NCBI GenBank assembly: GCA_964569385.1 | Contig: CAZMUM010000046.1 | Span: 1-33,167, forward strand | From: an uncultured Acidimicrobiales bacterium | Lineage (GTDB): Bacteria > Actinomycetota > Acidimicrobiia > Acidimicrobiales > Poriferisodalaceae | DNA length: 33,167 bases | Reading direction: 5' to 3' | In this document: one piece after another, positions 6,736 through 33,148 of the stretch | Layout: the number at the start of each line of letters is the position of its first letter | How positions within the stretch are numbered: position 1 is the first letter of the stretch | Program-made: the position numbers and the translations under genes | The notes under the pieces: generated by a model | Database searches by the model: none | What the model saw: only the letters and a program-made list of their open reading frames with translations | What the model was told of the DNA's origin: nothing

Positions 6736-9700
6736 GTGCTGTTCTCCGATGCGTCTGGCTACACCACTATGGCCGAGTCGCTCGATCCTGAGCTCGTTCG
6801 GGAGCTCATGGGTCTCATCTACGCGAAGGCCGACGAGATCGTCTCAAAGTACGGAGGCCGTGTCGACAAGCTGTTGGGCGACGCCGTTCTCGCTGTGTTT
6901 GGCGACCCGGTAGCTCACGAGGACGATGCTGTTCGAGCCGTACGCGCGGCCCTCGAACTACACGAGGCGGTGAAAGAGTTGGCTCCGGTCTTTGAAGAAC
7001 GAGCGGGACATTCGTTCAACATGCATAGCGGCATCAACACCGGTGTGGTCGTGACCAGCGGGCTCGAAAAGGACAGCACGAGCGGCCCGCTTGGCGACAT
7101 GGTCAACGTTGCCGCTCGATTGCAGTCTCTGGCAGGAACCGACGAGATCCTTGTCGGGCCTGACACCACAACACTGCTCGGCAACCAGGTCGAGTTAACC
7201 GACCTCGGCGAGCACGAGCTCAAGGGACGGCGCGAGCCGGTTTCGGTTGCTCGGGTTGAATCTCTAGTGGTTACGACACCAGCGTCGCGTCGGTATGGCG
7301 AGTTTGTCGGCCGGAACGAAGAACTTGGGGTCCTCCTGGGAGCGGTCGAACGACTGAAGGACGGCGACTCCAGCGTTGTTACTGTCTGCGCCGAAGCTGG
7401 AGCTGGAAAGACACGGCTGATCGAGGAACTCAGAAGCCGACTCGGCGATGACGTCAGGTGGCTCGAGGGGCGAGCCTACCCATACTCAGTCGATACTCCG
7501 TACGCATCGGTGATCGACCTATTGAACCGGGTAGCGGGCATCGACGAGAACGACAGTGCCGACGCCGTCAAGTCAAAACTTCGGACCATGATCACCGCTG
7601 TTCTTCCTGGCGACGAGGTCGCAATGGCGGCCATTGGCCAGCTATACGGCCATGTCCAGGAAGAGACTGCGATCGACCTGGAGGCATTTCGCAGTGTTCT
7701 TCTCGATTCCCTAACTCGTCTTCTCGATGTCGTTGGCGACCAAGGACCAACCGTGTTGTGCTTTCAGGATCTTCATTGGGTCGATCCGTCGACTGCGACC
7801 TTGCTGACGGATCTAATCGAGGCTGTGTCTGCGCCCATATTCGCGCTATGTAACTACCGACCAGGGTTCGAACTCGGAGCGTCTGGCGAACGGTCGTTGC
7901 AACTCGGGTTGCTGTCGCCACGTCAAACTGCTGAGTTACTGAAGTCGCTGCTCAACGGCGGAGAGCCACCTGCTGGCCTAACCGACTGGATCTGCACGCG
8001 GACCGACGGCAATCCGTTCTTCATTGAGGAAATCATCAACGATCTACTCGATCGCGCACTCTTGCGGCAATCCGAAGGTAGTTGGGAGCTGACACAGGAT
8101 CTAGACCAGGACACCGTGCCACCGACCATTCAGGGTCTGCTGGCGGCCAGGATTGACGCGCTGGCCCCCGAGAGCAGACGAGTCCTTCGCGAAGCCTCGG
8201 TAGTTGGTCGCGAGTTCCTTCACCGCATCGTGCAATCGGTGACCGACAAACCGACCGACCTCGATGCAAGCCTCGCGGGTCTGTCAGCGGCTGACTTCAT
8301 TCGTGAGAACAACCTCGACCCCGAACTTGAGTACATCTTCAAACATGCACTCACTCAAGAGGTCGCTTATGAAGGCCTCCTGCTCAGAGATCGACAGCTA
8401 CTGCACGAACGTGTTGCGCTCAGCATCGAGAAACATCTTGGCGACCGAATCGAAGAGTTCGTCGAAACCCTCGCCTATCACTATCAGCGCAGCGGCCATA
8501 TCTCCGAAGCTGTCACCTACCTGCGCCGGTCAGCGCAACGGGCACTAGACAGATACGCCATCGAGGAAGCCCACCGCCAATACCAGGCTGCCTACGAGCT
8601 ACTGACGTCGGAGGGCACGGTTGGTGTCGTCATCGATAAAAAGGTGCGTGACCGGCTACTACTCGAAGTGATCATCGAATCTGCGGAGAGCTACTACTAC
8701 AGCGCAAACCTCGGCGAATATCACGATTTGCTGCAGTCGCACCATGACCTGCCCGCCGCGGTAGGCAACGACACCTTGACCGCAAGGTGGATGGGCTGGC
8801 AAGGCATGATTCATTGGTTGCATGAGGTCGAGCACGCCGAGTCAATTGCGCTGCTGGAAGACGCTGTCACGCTCGCGGTTGAGTGCGGCGACGCACAGGC
8901 TGAGGCCTACGCCCTCGCTTGGCTACCTTGGGTGTACTTCACGGCGGGCCGAGCCTCTGAGGCGACTACGTTCTGGCCCAGATTGACCCAACTGCTTCCC
9001 AGTATCACAAGCCCAGCAGTGCGCCAGTACGCTCAAATCAAGGGACTAGGCGGCGCGACAGCAGCTGCAGCTGTGCTTGGCGATGCCACCACGGCACTTG
9101 CGCATGGAGAGGATTTGTTGTCCATAGGCCGTCGCACCGGTAATCGCAGAGCCACCGCAATGGGCCACCAAGCGAGAATCATGAAGGGCTGGGCGCATGG
9201 TGATGTTGAGGCCGCGTTTGCCGCAACTCAAGCAGCGGTCGATGCCAATGCCGATCCGATCTATGCAGAAGCCGCCAACATTTGGGCAACAGCCATCGCC
9301 ATAGCACTCGGTACCGCCGAGCAGGGGCGATCTTGGTACGACGCGACACTGCCGACATCTGGTGGATCTGGTGTCACGGGCGCGTACTACGAGATCATGG
9401 CGTTCCAACTTGACCTGATCGAGGGCCGGCTCAGCCGCGGCTTGCGCGGCTTGAAGGCGCGACGCCAGATCGAGCAAAGTAGAGGCTTCGGATGGGCGGT
9501 CATCCAGATCGACCTGTTCCTCGGGATAGCGCTCGCTCGCGCCGCTACCGGTGAGGTTGAGTCCTCGATATCGAACGCGATACGAAACCCAGCCTTCGTG
9601 ATGCGATACGGGTTCGGCCTAGCCAAGAAAGCGAGGCTGGCACTGGAGGCGGTTCTGTCGAGCGCCGACAATCATGGAAATCGAGCGCTAATCCCGTTGA

Positions 9701-9873
9701 TCGAGAACGAACTAGCCAAGTTGGCGATTCACGACAATCGAACCGATGATGCAGCCGCGCACCTTCGGAATATCTGTCAGAGATTGGCAGACTTTCCCGA
9801 GGCAACGCTGTATTGCGATGCCTCGACGACGCTAGAAGAGCTTGGGATTGGCCCTGCCTCATCGAAGAGTTGA
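6736..9873 (+). CDS. Class III adenylate/guanylate cyclase domain, AAA (STAND-type) ATPase and TPR signal-transduction protein
   Basis: Cyclase motifs (VT)VLFSDASGYTTMAE…KLLGDAVLAVFG…NMHSGINTGVVV…GDMVNVAARL. AAA/STAND P-loop CAEAGAGKTRLIEEL. About 700 aa of TPR-like helical repeats follow. No C-terminal HTH was seen. Confidence 0.8.
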   Translation: MLFSDASGYTTMAESLDPELVRELMGLIYAKADEIVSKYGGRVDKLLGDAVLAVFGDPVAHEDDAVRAVRAALELHEAVKELAPVFEERAGHSFNMHSGINTGVVVTSGLEKDSTSGPLGDMVNVAARLQSLAGTDEILVGPDTTTLLGNQVELTDLGEHELKGRREPVSVARVESLVVTTPASRRYGEFVGRNEELGVLLGAVERLKDGDSSVVTVCAEAGAGKTRLIEELRSRLGDDVRWLEGRAYPYSVDTPYASVIDLLNRVAGIDENDSADAVKSKLRTMITAVLPGDEVAMAAIGQLYGHVQEETAIDLEAFRSVLLDSLTRLLDVVGDQGPTVLCFQDLHWVDPSTATLLTDLIEAVSAPIFALCNYRPGFELGASGERSLQLGLLSPRQTAELLKSLLNGGEPPAGLTDWICTRTDGNPFFIEEIINDLLDRALLRQSEGSWELTQDLDQDTVPPTIQGLLAARIDALAPESRRVLREASVVGREFLHRIVQSVTDKPTDLDASLAGLSAADFIRENNLDPELEYIFKHALTQEVAYEGLLLRDRQLLHERVALSIEKHLGDRIEEFVETLAYHYQRSGHISEAVTYLRRSAQRALDRYAIEEAHRQYQAAYELLTSEGTVGVVIDKKVRDRLLLEVIIESAESYYYSANLGEYHDLLQSHHDLPAAVGNDTLTARWMGWQGMIHWLHEVEHAESIALLEDAVTLAVECGDAQAEAYALAWLPWVYFTAGRASEATTFWPRLTQLLPSITSPAVRQYAQIKGLGGATAAAAVLGDATTALAHGEDLLSIGRRTGNRRATAMGHQARIMKGWAHGDVEAAFAATQAAVDANADPIYAEAANIWATAIAIALGTAEQGRSWYDATLPTSGGSGVTGAYYEIMAFQLDLIEGRLSRGLRGLKARRQIEQSRGFGWAVIQIDLFLGIALARAATGEVESSISNAIRNPAFVMRYGFGLAKKARLALEAVLSSADNHGNRALIPLIENELAKLAIHDNRTDDAAAHLRNICQRLADFPEATLYCDASTTLEELGIGPASSKS

Positions 9874-13000: not shown

Positions 13001-13006
13001 AAGCAA
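12710..13006 (-). pseudogene. Truncated paralogous copy (C-terminal ~97 codons only) of the hypothetical gene at 14293-14832
   Basis: Translation LFHKPNPWSPRSSPGELLDAVPIEEISLQWAD…FFADGRFLPKYTVLG…DEADAILASLGDQAVEVEVPD is ~75% identical to residues 83-179 of the 14293-14832 product. DNA similarity starts abruptly at ~13000, about 30 nt from the MFS stop, with an in-frame TAG immediately upstream of the TTG. Confidence 0.6.
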
Positions 13007-13031
13007 CTACAAGATTGTTCATAGGCGGGTC

Positions 13032-14216
13032 TCAGGGCACATCGAGTGCTCGAGTGGCCAGGACAGCAAGGCCAACTCCAACCAAAGCGGCTGCACCCAA
13101 CACAAACAGGGTTTCGGCGCCGAGACCCGAGATCAACAGAGAGGCTGTTAGCGGCCCTGCGGTCTGACCGGCTCGCATCACAGAAGTGAACACCGACACC
13201 ACCGCGGCTCGGGAGTCCGTATCGGCGGCGCTGCTGACGACTTCTTGCAGCGTGGGGATCAGCATCCCTTCGGCAAACCCATAGACGAGAGAACCCACAA
13301 CAACGACGATCACCGCATCGGCAGTGCCAACAATGGCATAGGCACCCCCAAGAACAATGGCACCAAACCCGACTACGCGACGTGCCCCAAGCCGGGCCCG
13401 GGTACGCGACAACAGAAGCGCGGCAATTGTCGACGACAAGGCCGGGACACCGATAACGAGGCCACGGCTCCGCGCTTCCAAGCCGAAATTGTCTTCGAGC
13501 ATGATGGGAAAGACGGTCAAGAACAGACCGAAGATCATCACGAACACTACGAACGCCATGCCGATTGCAACCTTGACCGATGGCTTAGCGATGACGGTCG
13601 ACGCTTTGGAAATCTGCTGCCGAACCGTCGAGTCCGATGTTGTCGAGTGGCCAGCAAGTTTCCTTGCGACAAGCACCGCAGTCACGAACCCGACCGGAAA
13701 GAGGGCAAAGGACCACCGCCAAGTACCGAAACCGGCCAGCAGACCGCCAAGGGGCGGAAAACCAGCTACGCCAACGGTCAGAACAGCCGAGTTCCACGAG
13801 ATGTAGCGAATCCGGTCCGGGCCTTCCCAGTTATCGGCGATGAGGCTTACAGCCAATCCAATCAAGCTGGCCCCACCTATCCCCTGGAGCGCTCGGGCCG
13901 CGATGAGCGACCACCACGACGGCGCGAACATCGCCAGGGTTCCGCCCAGCGCAAAGGTGGCTAGTGCGGGAACGAGCACCAGTCGTCGCCCATGGCGGTC
14001 GGCCAACACTCCGAACAACGGGGCCAACAAAATGGCTGGTGCCGGACCGGCTGCCACGAATACCCCTGCGTCGCTGTCAGGCCGACCGAAGTGGTCGAGG
14101 ATGTCCGGTATTGAAGGTCCGACCATGGTGTTAGCCATCACTCCAGTGCCGGTGATAGCAAAGATCAGCCACAAGAGTGGACGACGAGTGCTGACTGAAT
14201 CGAGATCGGCTGACAT
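13032..14216 (-). CDS. MFS transporter
   Basis: 394 aa with about 12 hydrophobic segments. MFS-type loop motif GVLADRHGRR between TM2 and TM3. Confidence 0.85.
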   Translation of the reverse strand: MSADLDSVSTRRPLLWLIFAITGTGVMANTMVGPSIPDILDHFGRPDSDAGVFVAAGPAPAILLAPLFGVLADRHGRRLVLVPALATFALGGTLAMFAPSWWSLIAARALQGIGGASLIGLAVSLIADNWEGPDRIRYISWNSAVLTVGVAGFPPLGGLLAGFGTWRWSFALFPVGFVTAVLVARKLAGHSTTSDSTVRQQISKASTVIAKPSVKVAIGMAFVVFVMIFGLFLTVFPIMLEDNFGLEARSRGLVIGVPALSSTIAALLLSRTRARLGARRVVGFGAIVLGGAYAIVGTADAVIVVVVGSLVYGFAEGMLIPTLQEVVSSAADTDSRAAVVSVFTSVMRAGQTAGPLTASLLISGLGAETLFVLGAAALVGVGLAVLATRALDVP

Positions 14217-22262: not shown

Positions 22263-22932
22263 TTACTTGGCAGTCCATCCTCCGTCGACGGCGACAGTTT
22301 CGCCGGTGATGTAGGTGCTCGCCGAGCTAGCCAACAACAGGAGAACACCATCGAGTTCGCCCTCGTTTCCAGGCCGTCGCATCAGTGCACCTCGTTCGAT
22401 GTAGCGCTGTCCGCCTGCGGCCATCTCGCCCACAAACAGATCGCTGGTTAGTTCGGTCTCGAAATATCCGGGTGCAATCGCGTTTACCCGGATTCGGTGC
22501 CGAGCCCACTGCGCTGCCAAGTCCCTCGTGAGGCCGGTGAGGCCAGCCTTAGACGCAACATAGGCCGCTTGATGTATTGATGGCGAACAGGGCAGGGTCC
22601 TCCTCTTCGGCCTTTACCGGCGAATCCGACGTGCCGGCGTTGTTCACCAAGATATCGACCTTCCCGAACTGGTCGATCGACTCGGCGACAAGTCGACGTA
22701 GCTCTTCGTCGTCGGTCACGTCGCAGCGAATTGGCAACGAGTTCGGCAGCCTGGCTGCCAGCTCTGTTAGGCGATCCTCGCGCCGTGCCGCCAGCACAAC
22801 GTTGGCGCCAGCGTTACTTAGTACCTCAGAAAATCGCACCCCGAAACCGCTAGATGCTCCTGTAACGATGGCGACCTGACCCGTCAGGTCGAACAGGGTT
22901 GAGCTGTTGGGTGGTTTAACAACGTTGGGCAT
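22263..22932 (-). pseudogene. Short-chain dehydrogenase/reductase (SDR) gene carrying a frameshift and an internal deletion
   Basis: ORF 22549-22932 has TGASSGFG (the cofactor site) and NNAG. ORF 22263-22520 continues in another frame from …AYVASKAGLTGLTRDLAAQWARHRIRVNAIAPGYFETE (YxxxK and the PG motif). Only ~30 codons separate NNAG from the catalytic Tyr, against ~55-60 in intact SDRs. The two frames overlap between 22552 and 22613. Confidence 0.6.
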
Positions 22933-23672: not shown

Positions 23673-24554
23673 ATGACCACCTTTGACGAAACACCGCTGT
23701 CCAAATCGTTCGCAACCGTGAACGGCAAGTCGATGGCGTTTCACGAGCGAGGCGAGGGCGACAACACGTTCTTGTTCCTTCACGGCAACCCGACGTCGTC
23801 GTATCTTTGGCGCAACATCATTCCTCACCTCGAACCGCACGGTCGCTGCATATCTCCTGATCTGATTGGCATGGGCGATTCGGCCAAGCTCGACGACACC
23901 GGGCCAGACTCCTACCAATTCGTGGAGCACCGTCGTTATCTCGATGGACTGCTCGACCAACTCGACATTGGCGACAACGTCACGCTCGTCATCCACGACT
24001 GGGGCTCGGCACTGGGCTTCGACTGGGCTCATCGGCACCCCGCCCGCGTCGCGGGAATTGTGTACATGGAGTCGATCGTGCGGGCTATGGACTGGGACGA
24101 CTGGCCCGATGCTGCCACCGCTATCTTCGAAAGTATGCGATCGCCGGCAGGCGAGGAAATGGTCATCGACAAGAACCTCTTCGTCGAAGCAATTTTGCCT
24201 GGCTCGATTCTTCGAACGCTCACCGATGCCGAAATGGCCGAGTACCGACGTCCATTTGTCGATGCGGCCGCTCGCCGACCGACGCTCACTTGGCCCCGTC
24301 AGATACCACTCGGTGGCGAGCCTGCCGACGTCGTCGAAATCGTCAGCGCCTACTCAGACTGGCTCGTTACCGCCGACGTGCCAAAGCTGCTGGTCAACGC
24401 CGAGCCGGGGGCCATCATGACGGGGCCTCAGTTGGCTCACGCCAGAACGTTCGCCAACCAGACCGAGGTGCTGGTGTCGGGCAATCACTTCATCCAAGAA
24501 GACAGTCCTCACGAGATAGGCGAAGCAATCGTTGCCTGGTTGGCCGACCGCTAG
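23673..24554 (+). CDS. Haloalkane dehalogenase (alpha/beta-hydrolase fold, DhaA/LinB-like)
   Basis: FLFLHGNPTSSYLWRNIIPHL…IHDWGSALGF (nucleophile Asp in the HDWG context) …GNHFIQEDSPHEIGEAI is the classic haloalkane dehalogenase motif set (HGNPTSSYLWR). Confidence 0.85.
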   Translation: MTTFDETPLSKSFATVNGKSMAFHERGEGDNTFLFLHGNPTSSYLWRNIIPHLEPHGRCISPDLIGMGDSAKLDDTGPDSYQFVEHRRYLDGLLDQLDIGDNVTLVIHDWGSALGFDWAHRHPARVAGIVYMESIVRAMDWDDWPDAATAIFESMRSPAGEEMVIDKNLFVEAILPGSILRTLTDAEMAEYRRPFVDAAARRPTLTWPRQIPLGGEPADVVEIVSAYSDWLVTADVPKLLVNAEPGAIMTGPQLAHARTFANQTEVLVSGNHFIQEDSPHEIGEAIVAWLADR

Positions 24555-24557
24555 AAG

Positions 24558-27500
24558 TCAGTCGGATCCGATTACAGGAATCGCAGCATTGCCCATGGCG
24601 TCGGCGATTCGGTCGAGAGCGTCGACCACCCCAGCCGCAGGGTCGGCGACCTTGGTCGACCAACGTTTGGTTATGGCACTCCACCGCTTCAACTCGTCTT
24701 CGGCCAGTGTGCCCCGTAAAAAACCCAAAGCCAGAAGGTTCTGCTCGGCGCGATCGGTAAGAGTTTGGGCCTCAGATTGATAGTGATCCTCGACTAGCTG
24801 GTCGAGTTCGTCGTCGGTCATCGCCGGCACCACACTCGAGGCAATACGGGCCATGTTGCGGTAGGAGCCCTGAAGGAGAAATGGCGGTGCATCACGGTCG
24901 GTTTCGGCCGTGGCCGCCGATCGAACGTAGGCATCGTTTACGGCCATGACAGTGTCTTGAGCCCGATCTAGAAGGCCGATCAGTCGAACGGTTTCGGACA
25001 GTTGTGGGCCGTCCCAACGGTGTTCAAGGCCGTCGGTACTAGCGGGCCTGGTGCCTTTGGCCATGCCGAGCACTGCTTCGATGTCGTCGATCAACCGGCC
25101 AGCCGAACCAGCCAGAGCCGGGCAAGCGGTCAGGCTGTTCTCCAGATACGAAAGCGCAAAGTCTTGATCGTGTTCGTCGGCGACATCACCGAGATTGTGT
25201 ACGTCGGCGCGGTTGACCAACATGTCGGGGAGATCGAACCTGCTTCCACCAGACGAATACGGGTTACCGGCCATCACCACGGCAAGACGTTTGCCGCGGA
25301 GGTCGAAGGTAATGGCATCGCCGTCGGCTACGCCTTCGATTCGGCGAGTTGCATCGGCGAGTGGAATGAATCGAGACAAGAACTCCGCAGAGGTGAACTG
25401 CACGTCGTCGATGAACAACATGACGTTGCGACCGAACCGAAGAGCGAGATTGACCTTCTCGACCTCGGCCCGCGCGGCCGCGTTTGGCGCCGCGGCGGGA
25501 TCGAGCGATGTGGTGTCGGTTCCGAGAGCAGGACCATTGACCTTCACCATCAGCATGCCAAGCCGGTCGGCCAGCCAGGCCATGAGCGTTGTCTTGCCAT
25601 ACCCAGGCGGAGATGTCAGTACAAGAAGTCCGCTTCGGCTCAGGTCGGTGGCATCGACGGTGCCGATCTGGCGCGAGAGGTTGGCCCCAACCAACGGCAA
25701 CAGGGCGCGGTCGATGAGCCGATTCCGAACGAACCCAGCCATCACCTGAGGCCGGTGCGAGTCGAGGTCAACCTCGACACTGGCCTGGCTAACAACGGCG
25801 CGCCTTGCCGCCTGATATTGCGGCCACCGAGTCTGCATATCCTCGAACAAGCCGCCGACCCGCTGCGCCATCTCGTCGAATCGGAGGCGCATCTCGCCAC
25901 CGTCGATGCGACGATGTTCACTGACCAAACCGTCGACGTTGAACGCGCCGGCATGGGGTACTTCGCGCTGTCCAACATCGGGAGCCGCCAGCAACGCGGC
26001 CGCCTCGGCAACATCGAACTCAAACTCGGCCAGATTGGAGTCGTTGGCTACGACACCACCGACCCAGTCTTGGGCGGTGGCGAACCTCGAAACAACGTCA
26101 GGTGTCGAGCTAAGAGCCGAGTTCAACTCCTCGAACCCTTCCTTGCCAAGAACATCTTTGATACGAACCAGCAGCTCGGTAGCAGTGGACGGGACAGCGA
26201 GATCGAGCCCACGTACACCAAGATCGTCAGCCAGGTAGCCGGTTACGCCACGACGAGCCCGCGCGTCGAGGTGCGCCAGGACGCCAGCCAAATGTTGGTC
26301 GATCTCGGAGCGGACCCTCTTGATCCCATCAGCGACTCCGACTCGGTCGCGTGCCGATCTAGCCGCGCGAGCCCGTGTGGCGTGAGCAACAACTGCGGCC
26401 GAGTCGATCGATGCCACAAATATACGGCCGAGTGCGCGACTCATCCCCGCGTGTCCGAGGACCGGTTCGTCATTGCCCTGAGCGGTTAACGCGGCCAGAA
26501 GCCTGGTCGCGTCGTGGTCGTGTACGCCAACTTCGTAACCTTCACCGTGTCTGCGCTCGGTAACCGCCCGCACCAGGGCCGCCAGCTTTTCTGGTACCGC
26601 CGCAGCGGTGGACAGTTCGACCCGGCGGTCACCGTCGCCGCGGAGAACAGCCCAAGCTAAGTACTCGGCTCGGCTGACATCGTCGGTCTCTGACGGATAG
26701 GGCCGCGACATTAGATCTGCGAAGTCGCTCAGCTCGGCCGACACGTCCTGGCGATAGTCAGTACCGGTAACAGTCACGTCGACGCCACCCGAAGTCGGTG
26801 ACAGCACAATTTCGAATGGTTGTTCGTTGGGCGCGAAATTGAACCCTCCAAACGCGAGCGAGCCGTCTTCGGCTACAAGATCGGTTCGGTCACGAACCCG
26901 CCGCCGAGCTTCTTCGGCCGCCGCGTTCAACTCTGTACGGACTTCCGACGCTTGACCGACCTCGCCCAACTCTTGTAGTTCGTCGGCCAGGCTCCGCACC
27001 CTCGCCACCATCTGGTCGGCAGCAAAGAAACTGGCGATCTCGGCTTCGTCGGCCGCCTCTCCAGCGCGCTTGACCACGGTTCCAAGCAGACGACGCGCCG
27101 CCTCAACCAGCCGTTGGGTACGGCGGGCTCGCTGGTCGACCAACTCAGAGCGGCGCGCCCCGAACGTCTCGTTCAGGCGGTCTCGAAGTTCGACCATTCG
27201 ATCGATTCGGTCGGGTTCTTCGCCGTAGCGACTGTCGATCCGTTCGAGGTTTACGAGCAAACGCCCTAGCTCGGCATCGCATTCGTCTGGGTTCGTAGTG
27301 CCGACTACCGCAGCAGACATCGACTGCTCCAGCAGCGCGACCTCGGCGTCGAAGGCTTCGTCTGACTCCGAGGACCGCAACTCGCGTACACGGCCGTCGA
27401 GCTGGGCTCTCGCTCGGTTGGTACTAGCAGTGATGTCGGCGATGCGGCGAACAATTCGCGTCCGTGCGGTTGGGTCTCCGGCATCTAGGGCCGACACTGC

Positions 27501-29441
27501 ATCCACCACCGCCTCTAGGTCGCCGGTTACCGCCAGAACCTGTTCCATGATGTGGTTCACATCGAGCGCTGTGGCGCCCGCCAAACCCTCGACTACTAAC
27601 GACTCAAGACGTGTCTCGAAATCGGCGAAGGCCCGATCGTCGTCGAGAACCTCAGCGGCTCTTTCGGCCAGCCCGCTGATGGCATCGTCGAGATCAGAAG
27701 TCAGTTGAGCAACAGCTGTGTCGTCGATCTCGGGCACATCGTTGAGTAGCGACGCTTGTCCTCTGGCCCGACGAAGTAGCCCAAGAGCCTCGACCACATC
27801 GGTGGCCGAGGAGGCCCGGCTGGCCTCGTCGACTGTCCGGCGCGAGTCGCGTTCGGCAGCTTCGAGACGGGCTGCGGCTTCAGCTCGCAGCCGCCGAACT
27901 TTGGCGTACTCGTCGACCAACAGGCCGGCCGTGCTCACGATGTCGCGCAAGCCGCCGCGTAGATCTTCGGCCTCGGGGTCGGCCATCCACAAGTGGGTAT
28001 CCAGTGCGCGCCTCGCGGCAACGATTATGGCTTCCCAAGTGCGCTCGGAGGGGTCGACATCGTCGGCCAGCTGGCCTACGTCGTAGGCGTCTCCCAATCC
28101 AGCTACAAGATCAGCGTTGCCAACTCGATCAACCCAAGTGTCGCCGGTCGAGGTCTCGCTGTCGGCGAACTCGGCATCGACAAACGGTGTGTCCCACCAT
28201 TGGATGGGGTGAACGCGTGACAGCTCGGCATCGTCGGGACCACCTCTGAACAGCATCATTTGGCCGTCGGCAAACATTGCGAATCCGTGGCATGGGATGA
28301 GCTGTGAGATCTCGCGTCGCACCAGGTTGTATGGAGCTAATAAGTACTCGCCACTGTCGCGGTGATGAAAGACGTAGAGCAGGTCTTCACCGTTTGGTGC
28401 CGCGACAACTTCTTCGAACACCATTCCGTCGCTCGAAACGTCGAACAATCGCGTCCCGGTGGTAGCCAGGTGATATCCACCGGGGAAAACCACACCATCA
28501 CCACCAGGCAGAACGCGCGCCGCATCACCGAGAGCGTCGACCCTGGTTCCGCTGCGGGTACGACGACCGAATAAGTAAAAGCGAGGTGGCTCGGAATAGA
28601 GCTCGACGCTGATAGCCAGCTCTTCTCCGAACTCGGCGTAGGAAACCCCGACGTCGGCCAACGACTGACCAGGTACCTCGACCGGTTCGTCGGTTTCGAC
28701 TCGTCCGCCCGGCGTGCCATCTTCGATGCGTAACTGAAGACGACCGCCGCGGAACCCGACGAACACTTCGTCAAGCACCGACACTGTCGGGTGGGTGCCG
28801 GGACGCTGATCTTCGCGGGTGCTTCGCACCCAAGTCATGTCGTGAGAATCTGGCCACGTGTAGTCGCGGTCGCCTCTGGCATCGACGAACGATACTGTCC
28901 CGTCGATCGCTACGGTCCAGCGAAGAACTACAAGGTCATCGACTCGTTCGCCGATCCGGAATGCCGCTAGCAGTTGGTTAGCACCGCGACGCAGGTCGGA
29001 GAATCGGGCTTTGCCATAAAAGCGGTGGAGTTTGTCGAACTCTTCGCGGAATGCCGGCTCGGCTAGGAAATTCCGCTCATCGTCGGCACCAATCGGAGCA
29101 AGCTCGTCATCGGCGCCACGTTCGTACAACCCAAAGACATGTTCGGGCGTCAGCTGAGCCAGCTCTGGAGAGACCCGATAGCCGAGCATCAGCAGGTCGC
29201 CGACACGAACTACGTCTCGAGGCCTGCACGCGAGGTCCGTGCGAAGCCTGTCTGATCCGGCCAGCCGCAACTGCGTGCTGCCAAACGATTCGGTTCGTAG
29301 ACGGTCGAGCGATGTCGCGGCCTCAACCGTGTCGCGGACGCGGCCGCGCAATCGGCGCCTCAGCAGGTCGTAGTTGCCACCTGCTGGGCTGCCGGTGTCA
29401 GCGCTCGTCTGACCCGCGGAGGCGTCGCCGGTATCGGTCAT
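24558..29441 (-). CDS. Giant (1627 aa) protein with one AAA+ ATPase module near the C-terminus and ~1250 aa of unassigned N-terminal sequence. Last gene of the NfeD-flotillin operon.
   Basis: Walker A LVLTSPPGYGKTTLMAWL (~25585-25614). Walker B NVMLFIDDVQ. Sensor-1-like VVMAGNPYS. Sensor-2/Arg-like LLQGSYRNMARIA. The start sits 9 nt after the flotillin stop. From memory only, the overall look matches large proteins annotated as 'ATPase involved in DNA repair' (DUF3686+AAA). This is unverified. Confidence 0.8.
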   Translation of the reverse strand: MTDTGDASAGQTSADTGSPAGGNYDLLRRRLRGRVRDTVEAATSLDRLRTESFGSTQLRLAGSDRLRTDLACRPRDVVRVGDLLMLGYRVSPELAQLTPEHVFGLYERGADDELAPIGADDERNFLAEPAFREEFDKLHRFYGKARFSDLRRGANQLLAAFRIGERVDDLVVLRWTVAIDGTVSFVDARGDRDYTWPDSHDMTWVRSTREDQRPGTHPTVSVLDEVFVGFRGGRLQLRIEDGTPGGRVETDEPVEVPGQSLADVGVSYAEFGEELAISVELYSEPPRFYLFGRRTRSGTRVDALGDAARVLPGGDGVVFPGGYHLATTGTRLFDVSSDGMVFEEVVAAPNGEDLLYVFHHRDSGEYLLAPYNLVRREISQLIPCHGFAMFADGQMMLFRGGPDDAELSRVHPIQWWDTPFVDAEFADSETSTGDTWVDRVGNADLVAGLGDAYDVGQLADDVDPSERTWEAIIVAARRALDTHLWMADPEAEDLRGGLRDIVSTAGLLVDEYAKVRRLRAEAAARLEAAERDSRRTVDEASRASSATDVVEALGLLRRARGQASLLNDVPEIDDTAVAQLTSDLDDAISGLAERAAEVLDDDRAFADFETRLESLVVEGLAGATALDVNHIMEQVLAVTGDLEAVVDAVSALDAGDPTARTRIVRRIADITASTNRARAQLDGRVRELRSSESDEAFDAEVALLEQSMSAAVVGTTNPDECDAELGRLLVNLERIDSRYGEEPDRIDRMVELRDRLNETFGARRSELVDQRARRTQRLVEAARRLLGTVVKRAGEAADEAEIASFFAADQMVARVRSLADELQELGEVGQASEVRTELNAAAEEARRRVRDRTDLVAEDGSLAFGGFNFAPNEQPFEIVLSPTSGGVDVTVTGTDYRQDVSAELSDFADLMSRPYPSETDDVSRAEYLAWAVLRGDGDRRVELSTAAAVPEKLAALVRAVTERRHGEGYEVGVHDHDATRLLAALTAQGNDEPVLGHAGMSRALGRIFVASIDSAAVVAHATRARAARSARDRVGVADGIKRVRSEIDQHLAGVLAHLDARARRGVTGYLADDLGVRGLDLAVPSTATELLVRIKDVLGKEGFEELNSALSSTPDVVSRFATAQDWVGGVVANDSNLAEFEFDVAEAAALLAAPDVGQREVPHAGAFNVDGLVSEHRRIDGGEMRLRFDEMAQRVGGLFEDMQTRWPQYQAARRAVVSQASVEVDLDSHRPQVMAGFVRNRLIDRALLPLVGANLSRQIGTVDATDLSRSGLLVLTSPPGYGKTTLMAWLADRLGMLMVKVNGPALGTDTTSLDPAAAPNAAARAEVEKVNLALRFGRNVMLFIDDVQFTSAEFLSRFIPLADATRRIEGVADGDAITFDLRGKRLAVVMAGNPYSSGGSRFDLPDMLVNRADVHNLGDVADEHDQDFALSYLENSLTACPALAGSAGRLIDDIEAVLGMAKGTRPASTDGLEHRWDGPQLSETVRLIGLLDRAQDTVMAVNDAYVRSAATAETDRDAPPFLLQGSYRNMARIASSVVPAMTDDELDQLVEDHYQSEAQTLTDRAEQNLLALGFLRGTLAEDELKRWSAITKRWSTKVADPAAGVVDALDRIADAMGNAAIPVIGSD

Positions 29442-29449
29442 TGATTGGC

Positions 29450-31471
29450 TCAGCGATCGTCGCCGTCGAGAAGTTCACCAACGGGTCGGTCACTTAAACC
29501 ACCAGCCTCGATGGCTTCTCGCAGCGTGGCAACCAGATCGTTTCCACCAGATCCGAGCCGACCGCCGATTCTCGACACGAGGTCGGCAATGGTCAGATCG
29601 CGGATACCGGCTGCCCCGATTCCGCCAAGGCCATCAGCGACATCGGAGATAATGTTCGAGTCGCCTTCGAGGTATGGCTGAAGCATCCGACGGCCAGCGT
29701 CGCTGCTACCGACAAATCCATCGATGGCTTGGCCGTGGCCCGCAGCCGACAAGATGCGCTCGACAATGCCCTCGTCGGAAACGATTGTCATGTCGGCGTT
29801 CGACAACGACTCACCCAAGGCCGCGGCAGCCGACTTGGCTACGTCGGCCTTGGCGCCGATGGCGGCAAGCTCAACTTCTCGGTTTACGTCGAGCCGCAGG
29901 CGGAACTCCTCGTGGTCTTGCCCGGCGGCAGTCATAGCGCCGACACCTTCGGACTTGGCCTTCAGACCTTCGCCTTCGCCTTCGAGCCGGGCCTTGGTGG
30001 CATCGCCCTCGGCCATTCCTACCTCGCGCAACGCCTCGGCATCAGCCTTTTTGACCTCGACCTCGGCAAGACCGGTGGCTCGAATGGCATCAGCACGTTC
30101 ACGCTCGACCTGAACTTCGGCGAGGCCCTCGGCCGCCGATACAGCCTGGGTGCCTTCGGCACGGCGTTTCGATGCCTGCATTTCTTGGCTGGCAGCATCG
30201 GCTTCGGCGCGGGCAAGGGTAGTGAGCCGTTCGGCCTCAGATCCTGCGGCCTGTTTGTCCGCATCGGCTTCTTTGACTCTGGCTATAAAGGCAGCCTCGG
30301 CTAGGCCCTCGGCCGTCTTAACCTCCGAGGTTGCCTGGCGCTGAGCCTCTTCGACGACACGTAGCGTGGCTATCTCTTCTTCTTTCTCAGCCACTCCCAG
30401 ATCTGCTTCGACCCGGCCCCGAGTCAGCTCGGCGAGAGCACGTTCGCTAGTTTCTTTCTCCTTAGCCGCCTCGGCCACAGCGGTTTCACGCCCGACCTCG
30501 GCTAGAGCTCGATCGCGCTCAATCTCTTCTGTTTGCACGGCAATGACTCGCTGCCTGTTGGCGTCTGCCAGTGCGATCTCGCGATCCTTGTTCTGGTCGG
30601 CAACCCCGATCCCTTCTTCGGCAGCTATCCGGGCTTCCTCGGCGATACGGACTGCCTCGGCTTCGACCTGTTTGGCTTCGGCATCGGATCTGGCTTGAAC
30701 GGTCCGGATCTCCTGTTGCTGACGAGCCAGGGCTTCGGCCCGGTCGCGGTCCATCTCGAAGACGGCTTTGTCGGCATCGGTGGTGCGGCGAGTCGTTTCT
30801 TCGCGCTCGCGCTCTTGGGCGTCGTTGGTGCGAATGTGCTGTTCGACGGTGCGCTCGGTGATCTTACGAATGCCGTCGGCATCGAGGATGTTGGTCGGGT
30901 CGAGCTCTTCGATCGCTGTCTGTTCGAGGTAGTCGATAGCGACATCTTCAAGCACGTACCCGTTTAGGTCTTGGCCGATGATGCCAATGATCACATCCTT
31001 GAATTGTTGGCGTGATGTGTAGAGATCCTCGAAGTCGAATTCCTTGCCTGCCGATTTGAGAGCCTCGGAGAACTTGGCCGCAAACAACTCGCGAAGGGTG
31101 TTGAGGTCGGAGGCTCGAACAGTGCCGACCTGCTGGGCCACACGAATGACGGCTTCTTCGGTTTTGTCGACCTTGACGTAGAAGTCGACGGATATGTCGG
31201 CACGAACGTTGTCCTTGCAGACCAGGCCATCCTTGCCTCGGCGGTCGACCTGAATGTTCTTCACCGAGATGTCCATTACCTCGGCTTTATGGATGACCGG
31301 GATTACCACCTGACCGGTGAAGGTGACGACAACTTCTTTCCACTTCGAGACAACTAGCGCTTGGCCTTGAGGCACCTTGCGGAACAGCCGCGTCACTAAT
31401 AGACCAAACCCGATTGCCACGACCGCGACGATGACGATCACGACACCCACCGCTGTTAGAAGTCCGCTCAT
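29450..31471 (-). CDS. Flotillin / SPFH (band-7) family protein, YqiK/FloT-like, with a long E/A/R-rich coiled-coil region
   Basis: N-terminal TM helix, then an SPFH domain (VVSKWKEVVVTFTGQVVIPVIHKAEVMDISVKNIQVD…VRADISVDFYVKV…). About 250 aa of EA-rich coiled coil follow, then a flotillin C-terminal region. 673 aa. Confidence 0.9.
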   Translation of the reverse strand: MSGLLTAVGVVIVIVAVVAIGFGLLVTRLFRKVPQGQALVVSKWKEVVVTFTGQVVIPVIHKAEVMDISVKNIQVDRRGKDGLVCKDNVRADISVDFYVKVDKTEEAVIRVAQQVGTVRASDLNTLRELFAAKFSEALKSAGKEFDFEDLYTSRQQFKDVIIGIIGQDLNGYVLEDVAIDYLEQTAIEELDPTNILDADGIRKITERTVEQHIRTNDAQEREREETTRRTTDADKAVFEMDRDRAEALARQQQEIRTVQARSDAEAKQVEAEAVRIAEEARIAAEEGIGVADQNKDREIALADANRQRVIAVQTEEIERDRALAEVGRETAVAEAAKEKETSERALAELTRGRVEADLGVAEKEEEIATLRVVEEAQRQATSEVKTAEGLAEAAFIARVKEADADKQAAGSEAERLTTLARAEADAASQEMQASKRRAEGTQAVSAAEGLAEVQVERERADAIRATGLAEVEVKKADAEALREVGMAEGDATKARLEGEGEGLKAKSEGVGAMTAAGQDHEEFRLRLDVNREVELAAIGAKADVAKSAAAALGESLSNADMTIVSDEGIVERILSAAGHGQAIDGFVGSSDAGRRMLQPYLEGDSNIISDVADGLGGIGAAGIRDLTIADLVSRIGGRLGSGGNDLVATLREAIEAGGLSDRPVGELLDGDDR

Positions 31472-31473
31472 TG

Positions 31474-32094
31474 TCAGTTGTCTCCCTTATTGCCGAACAG
31501 TTGGTCATCATTCGTCACGCCGTAAGTGGCAGAGTCGGAATTCCATGACATAAGTCGAATTGTGTCGCCTGGGCCAAGCCCAAGTGCGTTGCCGTCGCGC
31601 ACGTCGATGCGCGACATCGAGCCGTCGTCCCAGATGGCGTCGGCGTAGCCAAAGCCTGCATCTACCCGACCTGAGCGCACCGTGGCCTCTCGGCCAACTA
31701 ACTCCATCGCACTAGGGGCGGTTGCAGTCTCCATTAGGCGCCCGAGAGGTCGGGCCAGCCTTGAGCCGAGAAACAATGCAGTAGCAAGGGCCATCACGAA
31801 CACAGCCGCCGATGCGGCCACAAGGGTCATCCCGCCAAGCGGGTCGAGAAAGAACAGCGCCGCCACCACGGCCAGGAACCAAGCAATTAGCGAGACGATC
31901 GAGAACACAACCAATGGCGGAACTCCACCAAGGCCAAGCGACGCCACTGCGTCCTCGCCGAAGCCGTCGCCTATGTCGCCGCCAATATCGAGGATGCCGA
32001 TCATCGAAACCAGCCACAGAACCAGGCTGACCCCAAGTGGTATGAAGAAGATGATCGCGACTGGAGTGGTCGCCGCATCCCAGAATTCAGCCAT
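31474..32094 (-). CDS. NfeD-like (YqiJ/YuaF-type) membrane protein, first gene of the flotillin operon
   Basis: Three or four N-terminal TM helices. C-terminal soluble beta-rich (OB-like) segment GREATVRSGRVDAGFGYADAIWDDGSMSRIDVRDGNALGLGPGDTIRLMS. It lies directly upstream of the flotillin gene, and its stop is 3 nt from the flotillin start. Confidence 0.75.
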   Translation of the reverse strand: MAEFWDAATTPVAIIFFIPLGVSLVLWLVSMIGILDIGGDIGDGFGEDAVASLGLGGVPPLVVFSIVSLIAWFLAVVAALFFLDPLGGMTLVAASAAVFVMALATALFLGSRLARPLGRLMETATAPSAMELVGREATVRSGRVDAGFGYADAIWDDGSMSRIDVRDGNALGLGPGDTIRLMSWNSDSATYGVTNDDQLFGNKGDN

Positions 32095-32221
32095 GTTGAT
32101 TCAGTTGCTCCCCGCGCTTACTCGTTGTAGTTACCAACGACGACTGGGCGTCTTCGGTTCCCACACCGAGTGAGATCCTTACAGACTTCAGCGGCACAGG
32201 TGACCAGACTAACTCGGAGTC

Positions 32222-33148
32222 TTGCTTGTAACCGCCTCGATGGGCACAAGGCCCCACTCGGTACTACTTTTAGCGTTCCCGCTGATCGAGCACTCGCACT
32301 GCGGCAGATCGCCCAAAATATATCCGGCAGATCGGTCGAATCAAGACAGCTGCTTGTGCGATCTCTCGACCCCGGGTGTCCGCAGAGCGGCAATCGAGGA
32401 CCCAGATGGGATCCTCGCAGCCACTTCCGGCCGCGTGCTGATCGATGAGTGGCAGGAAGCTCCGGAGATTCTCGGCGCTGTCAAGCGTGCCGTCGACGCC
32501 GACCTCTCGAGCACCCCTGGTCGATTCATCGTGACAGGTTCGGTCCGTGCTGCACAACAAGCTGCTACCTGGCCGGGAACCGGCCGACTCATCAGAGTTC
32601 AGATGTCGGGCTTGACCCAAAGCGAACTCGAAGACAACAACACCTACAACCCCATCGACACCCTCTTCGCCGATGAAGCGCCGACGTTCGGCCATTCTGG
32701 CCTCAGCCGCCACGGCTACCTTGCCAGGGTCGTCGCTGGAAGATTTCCCGATGTCATCGGCAGATCAGATCGAAGTCGTTCCCGCTGGTTCGACGGATAC
32801 GTCGAACAGCTCGTCGACCGCGACGCAGCACAGATCGCCACGACCAACCCTCACCCACGAAAGCTCCGCTCTGTGCTGTCATCATGCGTCGCCCGCACCG
32901 GACAAGAACTAAACAAAGAAGCAACCGCCAGAGACGCCGACGTAGCCAAGGGAACAGCCGACACCTACATCACCCTGCTCGAAGACCTCTCCATCATCCA
33001 GCGAGTCCCCGCCTGGCACAACAAACGCCTCCACCGACTCAACCGATCACCCAAGATCCACATCGCAGACCCCGGCCTCGCCGCACACCTGCTCAACGTC
33101 GACGTCACAGCCCTCGGGTCTGCACGGTATATGGTTGATGGTGTGTGA
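32222..33148 (+). pseudogene. Degraded AAA+ ATPase of the DUF4143 family. The N-terminal P-loop region is frameshifted or deleted.
   Basis: The C-terminal part (…RVLIDEWQEAPEIL…FIVTGS…YGYLARVVAGRFP…DGYVEQLVDRD…) matches the 'ATPase + DUF4143' family from the Walker B region (LIDEWQ) onward. The expected upstream LLRQIA segment is in another frame (ORF 32170-32448: …ALALRQIAQNISGRSVESRQLLVRSLDPG). No intact GxxGxGKT is present. Confidence 0.55.

Follow-up and report, generated by a model that had tools for sequence, protein, structure and literature searches.

In a 33,167-nucleotide (nt) stretch of DNA from an uncultured Acidimicrobiales bacterium (GenBank assembly GCA_964569385.1, contig CAZMUM010000046.1; hereafter "the window," meaning the whole of this stretch), we found a minus-strand string of three genes that encode a small membrane protein, a flotillin, and a very large AAA+ protein (hereafter "the giant"), and that recurs as one conserved unit across several bacterial phyla. 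The trio is the abbreviated, three-gene form of an operon previously connected with the phage-shock protein (PSP) PspA. A first-pass annotation of the window had described three tightly spaced reading frames here, with gaps of 2 and 8 nt, and the list of open reading frames (ORFs) with their translations, together with the sequence itself, bears this out: the three ORFs are consecutive, begin with ATG, and encode proteins of 206, 673, and 1627 amino acids (aa).

31474–32094, minus strand: predicted YqiJ/YuaF-type small membrane protein, 206 aa (hydropathy, hhalign)
29450–31471, minus strand: predicted YqiK-type flotillin, 673 aa (hhalign, hydropathy)
24558–29441, minus strand: giant, predicted soluble AAA+ protein, 1627 aa (Pfam, hydropathy, AlphaFold models)

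To quantify the linkage of these genes, we scanned an alignment of the giant across genomes (at least 588 species) and kept the best 80 loci, 73 of which were assessable in that they had at least 3 kb of upstream sequence whose ORFs could be searched with hidden Markov models. The end of a flotillin gene adjoins the start of the giant gene, on the same strand, in 73/73 of these loci, and a YqiJ-like gene is present in 63/73. The best 80 loci fall in Actinomycetota, Myxococcota, Gammaproteobacteria, and Acidobacteriota, and the trio is also found on Bacteroidota and Deinococcus plasmids; in 13 loci, start and stop codons overlap by −4 or −1 nt, as judged from longest-ORF start codons. Because the gene order recurs in every assessable locus from several phyla, the arrangement is far beyond chance, and the three genes constitute a single unit. 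Two of the 10 loci lacking a YqiJ-like gene have too little upstream sequence to assess, and six of the other eight are Streptomyces (L054, L058, L060, L064, L072, and L079), where a divergent PucR/CdaR-like regulator lies upstream of the flotillin; this regulator family recurs in 16 loci (Streptomyces). The Streptomyces subclade indicates that flotillin and giant make up the invariant core. No fourth universally conserved neighbor was found in these loci, only lineage-specific ones such as the PucR-like regulator in Streptomyces and a PspA pair elsewhere.

The reverse comparison, which used 80 metagenomic loci picked solely by flotillin similarity (69 assessable), gave a concordant picture, with the giant beginning no more than 750 nt downstream of the flotillin in 62/69 loci as detected by tblastn. 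At three further loci (L137, L149, and L163), the giant is matched only from 3.3–4.2 kb downstream, and inspection of L137 revealed a diverged giant ORF of 1761 aa that starts ~590 nt after the flotillin; a fourth (L144) has only 605 nt of downstream sequence and no giant match. In total, 66/69 flotillin-selected loci either have a giant match or leave no room to find one. The remaining three (L104, L112, and L133) have no giant match despite 2.8–7 kb of downstream sequence. On inspection, the metagenome contigs L104 and L112 carry plain YqiJ-flotillin pairs whose flotillin is ~41% identical to that of the window, showing that this flotillin subfamily can exist without the ATPase. Conserved linkage of the giant to SPFH/NfeD genes in other genomes had been set beforehand as a finding on which the proposal of a three-gene system would stand or fall, and the counts in both directions uphold it; support likewise extends to the close packing of the genes on one strand and to the notion that they encode a machine associated with the membrane.

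The trio is not new as an operon type. Ravi et al. 2024 (PMC11237479; preprint 2020) reported it by comparative genomics in their study of the phage-shock (PspA) system, as an operon comprising a CesT/Tir-PspA pair, a flotillin, a beta-propeller/coiled-coil AAA+ ATPase, and a YqiJ/YuaF protein with three transmembrane (TM) segments, exemplified by the neighborhood of Dokdonia donghaensis ANH61663.1. The same paper states that "abbreviated operons," from which the PspA pair is missing, have a wider distribution and could function together with a PspA encoded at another site, and it proposes a role in sub-membrane assembly and dynamics, in one paragraph without structures, quantified linkage, or experiments (PMC11237479). 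The window's genes match this operon in order and architectures: an upstream 3-TM YqiJ/YuaF-type gene, a flotillin, and a last gene for an AAA+ ATPase with propeller and coiled coil. They differ from it in lacking both the CesT/Tir-PspA pair, in whose place the upstream neighbor is a divergent DUF4143 gene, and the operon's occasional phospholipase D gene. Three PspA and three YjfI sequences, used as tblastn queries against the window, found neither gene, and the window trio is therefore the abbreviated form. Thus, the suggestion of an undescribed system gives way to a more modest one, in which the window adds another, abbreviated instance of a reported operon in an Acidimicrobiia-like genome. 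In full-text searchable literature, we found nothing on the giant's family (DUF3686, PF12458) and no experiments on the trio. What the present analysis adds are the two-way linkage counts, confident domain models, assignment of the AAA+ clade, the invariant DD Walker B, and two variant forms, namely the YqiJ-less form of Streptomyces and a fusion to a yjf-type operon on plasmid pQBR103.

The connection to PspA recurs elsewhere in our collection. In loci of Pseudoalteromonas, Pseudomonas, and Ca. Thiodiazotropha (L059, L067, and L071), the trio is immediately preceded, in the same orientation, by genes for DUF2170 (YjfI, CesT/Tir-like) and PspA_IM30, and the DUF2170-PspA pair is present in 15 of ~162 loci overall. 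On a Hymenobacter plasmid, the order is Tir chaperone, PspA, DUF1449, flotillin, and giant. On pQBR103, a Pseudomonas fluorescens megaplasmid (L165, NC_009444.1 85112–97641), the trio is appended to genes for PspA, a rhomboid protease, DUF2491, DUF350, DUF1190, and a glutathionylspermidine-synthase-like protein, a run that constitutes a yjfJKLMC-type polyamine-linked PSP operon.

We next consider the giant, whose N-terminal region had been left unassigned in the first-pass annotation. This region in fact belongs to DUF3686 (Pfam match at residues 40–483, E 1e-131) and is followed by DUF7902 at residues 604–687. Pfam gives a single weak AAA match at residues 1274–1347, and AAA_5 reaches 20 bits, under its cutoff; together with the Walker A and B motifs located below, the AAA match agrees with the earlier placement of one AAA+ module near the C terminus. 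Pfam detected no peptidase family or other effector domain, and comparison of the giant's profile with the PDB matched just ~35–60 residues around the P-loop. Because no segment is hydrophobic (maximum KD19 1.36 in the hydropathy analysis), the giant is predicted to be soluble. Two AlphaFold models built from 46-sequence alignments reached pLDDT values of 89.8 and 91.7, and full-length homologs of 1550–2040 aa have a uniform architecture. The N-terminal module defines a small family, for which 1.84 billion representatives yield 221 clusters at E ≤ 1e-30. From the models and alignments, the parts of the giant are as follows.

Residues 23–53: helix N-terminal to the propeller-like domain (AlphaFold model)
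28191–29267, minus strand: beta-propeller-like domain, residues 59–417, the DUF3686 core (model with ~26 strands, Foldseek)
26871–28136, minus strand: long antiparallel helical bundles, residues 436–857, including DUF7902 (604–687) (model)
25752–26861, minus strand: middle domain, residues 861–1230, a small beta element plus helices (AlphaFold model)
25056–25721, minus strand: AAA+ module, residues ~1241–1462, with a beta-hairpin before sensor 1 (AlphaFold model)
25590–25613, minus strand: Walker A, SPPGYGKT, invariant in 22 and in 46 homologs
25404–25421, minus strand: Walker B, MLFIDD, where DD replaces the customary DE; D1345 and D1346 invariant across the family
24588–25010, minus strand: C-terminal helical extension, residues ~1478–1618, with a conserved GSYRNM (model)

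Foldseek comparison of the propeller-like domain with the PDB returned only beta-propellers as compact matches (Vps11 WD40, WDR91, YncE, the propellers of prolyl and acylaminoacyl peptidases, and Kelch). These matches are weak, with E values from 1e-5 to 1e-3 (probability up to 1.0), and because the target-normalized TM score is at most 0.37, the propeller is a divergent one. The middle domain carries a conserved GYERGVHDxDA (GYExGVHDxDA) motif at residues 968–978 (window ~26500–26540), in which G968, G972, H974, D975, D977, and A978 are invariant; the motif could be a metal or ligand site.

The C-terminal module has the Walker A signature GxxGxGK[ST] and the alpha/beta plus lid fold of AAA+ proteins, and its nearest structural relatives are MoxR-type ATPases (CbbQ and NorQ), dynein, and midasin. 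It does not contain the Walker B form hhhhDE with a catalytic Glu: D1346 takes the place of this residue and is invariant in 46 homologs, and the Walker B of the family is followed by an invariant Gln (consensus LDDIQHT). We take this DD Walker B to resemble the motif of DnaA/DnaC-type AAA+ proteins. DnaA and DnaC-type AAA+ proteins with a DD Walker B are slow, switch-like ATPases. Further invariant residues include K1283 of Walker A, N1393 of sensor 1, R1411, and R1528; of these, R1411 is a candidate Arg finger and R1528, within GSYRNM, a candidate sensor 2. In the sequence that separates Walker A from Walker B, we see no aromatic pore-loop motif.

The 673-aa protein was recognized as a flotillin through profile comparison. 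Aligned by hhalign, a profile of 22 orthologs matched E. coli YqiK with a probability of 99.9% (E 2.5e-32, 425 columns), an alignment that takes in TM helix, SPFH domain, and coiled coil and ends at YqiK residue 438. The window protein itself has no Pfam match even at E 10, Band_7 (PF01145) included, and its SPFH membership therefore rests on the profile comparison; Band_7 is matched by 6/22 of its orthologs (best 1.4e-11), as well as by the Ilumatobacter coccineus ortholog (~70% identity) and the pQBR103 ortholog. The C-terminal Flot domain (PF15975) was matched neither by the window flotillin nor by the orthologs scanned with Pfam; E. coli YqiK, by contrast, matches Flot at 6.4e-41. Hydropathy shows a single TM segment at residues 1–33 followed by a basic RLFRK, and after it come the SPFH/band-7 domain, a long coiled coil rich in Ala and Glu, and a C-terminal region particular to the family. 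Because a single N-terminal TM helix is followed by basic residues, the positive-inside rule would place the SPFH domain and the coiled-coil bulk in the cytoplasm. Taken together, these features identify the protein, at the level of sequence, as a divergent YqiK-type flotillin, in keeping with its first annotation as a flotillin.

The 206-aa protein has three hydrophobic segments by hydropathy (~6–42, 49–95, and 85–114), taken as three TM helices. It also has a loop of acidic character and, at its C terminus, a beta (OB-like) domain whose motif VGxxxxVxxxxVxxxFGxAEV...G is conserved in the family alignment. It has no match in Pfam, NCBIfam, or PADLOC, and neither it nor any of 22 orthologs matches NfeD (PF01957, a model of the C-terminal OB domain) or, by hmmscan, the YqiJ_N and YqiJ_OB models (PF21001 and PF07290); E. 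coli YqiJ, by contrast, matches both of the latter. In hhalign, the family profile aligned with E. coli YqiJ over TM2–TM3 and the OB region (probability 87.5%, E 3.6e-6) and with a DUF1449-annotated Hymenobacter ortholog (probability 99.6%, E 1.8e-24). The protein thus appears to be of the YqiJ/DUF1449 type with three TM helices, recognizable only by profile comparison. Its earlier label, "NfeD-like," can stand in the loose YqiJ/YuaF sense only. For this protein and for the flotillin, the identity comes from hhalign because direct scans against Pfam, NCBIfam, and PADLOC gave no match; the E. coli YqiJ and YqiK references were taken from NC_000913.3. PDB searches with the flotillin-like and small proteins, by single sequence and by profile, yielded nothing useful. 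The two-gene core agrees in order and domain layout with E. coli yqiJ-yqiK and B. subtilis yuaF-floT, although neither of those pairs includes a third gene, the Pfam models Band_7, Flot, and YqiJ do not match the window proteins, and the window flotillin has a distinct C-terminal region of ~200 aa.

What might such a unit do? The reading we put forward, and hold with about as much belief as doubt, is that the trio is an abbreviated PSP-associated membrane-stress module in which the giant ATPase remodels flotillin or PspA assemblies. The flotillin would oligomerize, like other SPFH proteins, into a dome or ring on the membrane's inner face, and the YqiJ-like protein would attach by its OB-like domain to the rim of this assembly nearest the membrane. 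The giant would oligomerize through its AAA+ module, probably as a hexamer of ~1 MDa, and its propeller and long helical arms could reach the flotillin lattice and, where present, PspA polymers. Under envelope stress, ATP binding and slow hydrolysis by the giant might then reshape these scaffolds, take them apart, or shift their position, a role that would liken it to Vps4 acting on ESCRT-III. PspA is a member of the ESCRT-III superfamily, and ESCRT-III polymers are remodeled by the AAA+ protein Vps4. We favor a remodeler or switch over a threading unfoldase on three grounds: a fold resembling that of MoxR, the lack of an aromatic residue in the pore loop, and a Walker B with DD. The flotillin-YqiJ assembly at the cytoplasmic face is modeled on known SPFH cages, namely those of HflK/C with FtsH, QmcA-YbbJ, and flotillin (cited in PMC13086221).

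As in HflK/C-FtsH and prohibitin-m-AAA, an SPFH scaffold would be functionally paired with an AAA+ machine at the membrane; whereas FtsH is membrane anchored and carries a protease, the giant is predicted to be soluble with no peptidase domain or TM segment, falls in a different clade of AAA+ proteins, and would be positioned at the cytoplasmic face. As in ESCRT-III/Vps4, a membrane-bound polymer or scaffold is encoded beside a dedicated AAA+ ATPase, with PspA in the same operon in several lineages; however, the giant's AAA+ module falls outside the classic Vps4/meiotic clade, has neither an aromatic pore loop nor an MIT domain, and shows DD in its Walker B, and PspA is not encoded in the window. 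The resemblance of the module to MoxR proteins (CbbQ, NorQ, and RavA) and to dynein/midasin is structural only, sequence similarity being marginal; MoxR proteins are ~300 aa and have a VWA-domain partner, whereas the giant, at 1627 aa, is five times larger with no VWA gene in its neighborhood, and its N-terminal propeller and helical arms are unique.

Several observations weigh against remodeling of flotillin or PspA assemblies by the giant. Any contact of the giant with flotillin, the YqiJ-like protein, or PspA is purely putative, and in the window, as in most actinobacterial loci, PspA is not part of the operon. The family-wide exchange of Asp for Glu in Walker B suggests that the giant may be a nucleotide-dependent switch and not a motor, and the absence of an aromatic pore-loop motif from its AAA+ module argues against Vps4-style threading. 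The YqiJ-less Streptomyces loci and the giant-less pairs L104 and L112 show that the parts are separable. Finally, the strong correlation between the pairwise distances of flotillin and giant (r = 0.94, Mantel 0/999), which in itself speaks for a single unit, partly reflects species phylogeny.

A bolder version of the remodeling proposal, which we offer only tentatively, is that the giant is a dedicated ATP-driven remodeler of flotillin cages and of co-encoded PspA polymers, forming a ring of ~1 MDa whose propeller-tipped arms would grip the SPFH dome from the cytoplasm. If true, it would be the first known ATPase to assemble, disassemble, or move a flotillin scaffold, and, in function, a bacterial equivalent of Vps4 that acts on an SPFH lattice. 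We know of no dedicated energy-consuming partner of flotillin. How flotillin/SPFH scaffolds are assembled, turned over, and functionally coupled is a question in bacteria and eukaryotes alike, to which the trio contributes a candidate partner, along with the genomic tie of the module to PspA, a bacterial relative of ESCRT-III. The module is found in tractable hosts: Streptomyces, Pseudomonas fluorescens with pQBR103, Proteus, and Myxococcus.

The nearest competitor to scaffold remodeling treats the flotillin cage as a platform and not as the substrate. Here, in the manner of HflK/C-FtsH or prohibitin-m-AAA, the flotillin-YqiJ cage would corral client membrane proteins for quality control, and the giant would bind them through its propeller and hold, extract, or reassemble them without any protease, a possibility to which we assign a rather low probability. 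The pairing of SPFH with AAA+ proteins is a recurrent theme, FloA-NfeD stabilizes unfolded proteins (PMC13086221), and chaperone-like assembly roles have been proposed for band-7 partners (PMC11237479); moreover, the closest structural relatives of the AAA+ module, CbbQ and NorQ, are chaperone-like MoxR-type ATPases, and beta-propellers are common as client-binding modules. Yet Pfam finds neither a protease nor any other effector domain in the giant, no client gene is conserved in the neighborhood, and the VWA partner with which MoxR ATPases normally pair is missing there as well. The recurrent fusion to PspA operons also points to scaffold dynamics and not to generic proteostasis.

Two further explanations fare worse. 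The trio might be an anti-phage or conflict system in which the giant senses infection through its propeller and triggers a membrane response via its flotillin and YqiJ-like partners. Defense systems typically include giant NTPases with repeat sensors, and the giant's family is small and patchy and is found on a few megaplasmids and chromids, such as pQBR103, and on Hymenobacter and Deinococcus plasmids. Against this, PADLOC-DB 2.0 gave nothing above noise (its sole match, DruC, lies in the coiled-coil region at E 0.0093 and 12.5 bits), the sole NCBIfam defense match, IteA, scored 15 bits against a cutoff of 510, and the giant family had no match among 50,697 phage records. In addition, the neighborhood has no conserved effector of the nuclease, toxin, or pore type, local synteny is stable in Streptomyces, as the 16 loci with the PucR-like regulator attest, and the genes around the trio in the window serve housekeeping or metabolism (SurE, folate, Dus, Maf, PolA-like, and glutamine synthetase). 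A defense island is therefore unlikely, and an anti-phage function has a small chance of being correct. Still harder to credit is an SbcC/SMC-like DNA repair ATPase that is only a chance neighbor of the flotillin pair. This idea owes its currency to names: NCBI calls the giant a "DNA repair ATPase," Pfam describes DUF3686 as an ATPase involved in DNA repair, and there is a weak similarity to RuvB around the P-loop. The RuvB match, however, covers the Walker A region only and scores 16.9 bits against a cutoff of 282, Pfam detects no DNA-binding or nuclease domain in the giant, full-text searches turned up no literature behind the name, and the invariable adjacency to a membrane flotillin and the recurring PspA links speak for a different context. 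We rejected the DNA-repair reading, as it has no supporting domain and the RuvB and IteA matches are far under their cutoffs. The name probably derives from spurious coiled-coil similarity; it is unsupported and misleading, and the present analysis corrects it.

At the level of the DNA, the three genes are closely packed. The junction between the 206-aa and 673-aa genes reads TGAcaATG at 31476/31471, leaving the gap of 2 nt, and a GGGAGA stands 9–10 nt 5′ of the flotillin ATG. The junction between the 673-aa and 1627-aa genes, at 29452/29441, reads TGAgccaatcaATG with its gap of 8 nt, and no clear Shine-Dalgarno sequence was found there for the giant's start. A consensus scan found no promoter-like or terminator-like sites at either junction, but as its total site counts are at shuffle level, it decides nothing. 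Upstream of the first gene lies one further feature:

32095–32221, minus strand: intergenic region of 127 nt between the 206-aa gene and the divergent DUF4143 ATPase gene, common to both

This region contains a GGGGAG ~13 nt before the first ATG. The operon promoter is presumed to lie here; the scan, with counts again at shuffle level, gave no sigma-70-like consensus site inside the region.

The flanks of the trio are as originally annotated: an alpha/beta hydrolase, a Glyoxalase_3/VOC protein, an SDR in two fragments, and a short DUF4143/AAA_14 ATPase. The stop codons of the giant and of the convergent alpha/beta-hydrolase gene are 3 nt apart (window 24552–24560), which means that any terminator of either gene must sit inside the other. 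The SDR gene (22263–22932, minus strand) is split into adjacent pieces of 127 aa (adh_short) and 85 aa (adh_short_C2) and is probably a frameshifted pseudogene. The DUF4143/AAA_14 ATPase (32222–33148, plus strand) matches positions 51–128 only of the AAA_14 profile and is thus N-terminally short or degraded.

The window is identical in sequence to a JGI metagenome contig (34.5 kb), and its nearest relatives are Acidimicrobiia such as Ilumatobacter. Beyond the trio and its flanks, it carries ordinary chromosomal genes, among them SurE, 5-FTHF cyclo-ligase, Dus, Maf, PolA-like, glutamine synthetase, an MFS transporter, and STAND-type regulators. Two of these regulators are large signaling proteins, one of 973 aa with BTAD and nSTAND/AAA_16 (3210–6131, minus strand) and one of 1045 aa with adenylate/guanylate cyclase and AAA_16 (6736–9873, plus strand). 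AT skew is extreme in two intervals, at +0.32 in 13001–14000, within an MFS transporter gene, and at −0.31 in 30001–31000, within the Glu/Ala-rich coiled coil of the flotillin; each value seems to follow from the composition of the protein encoded there.

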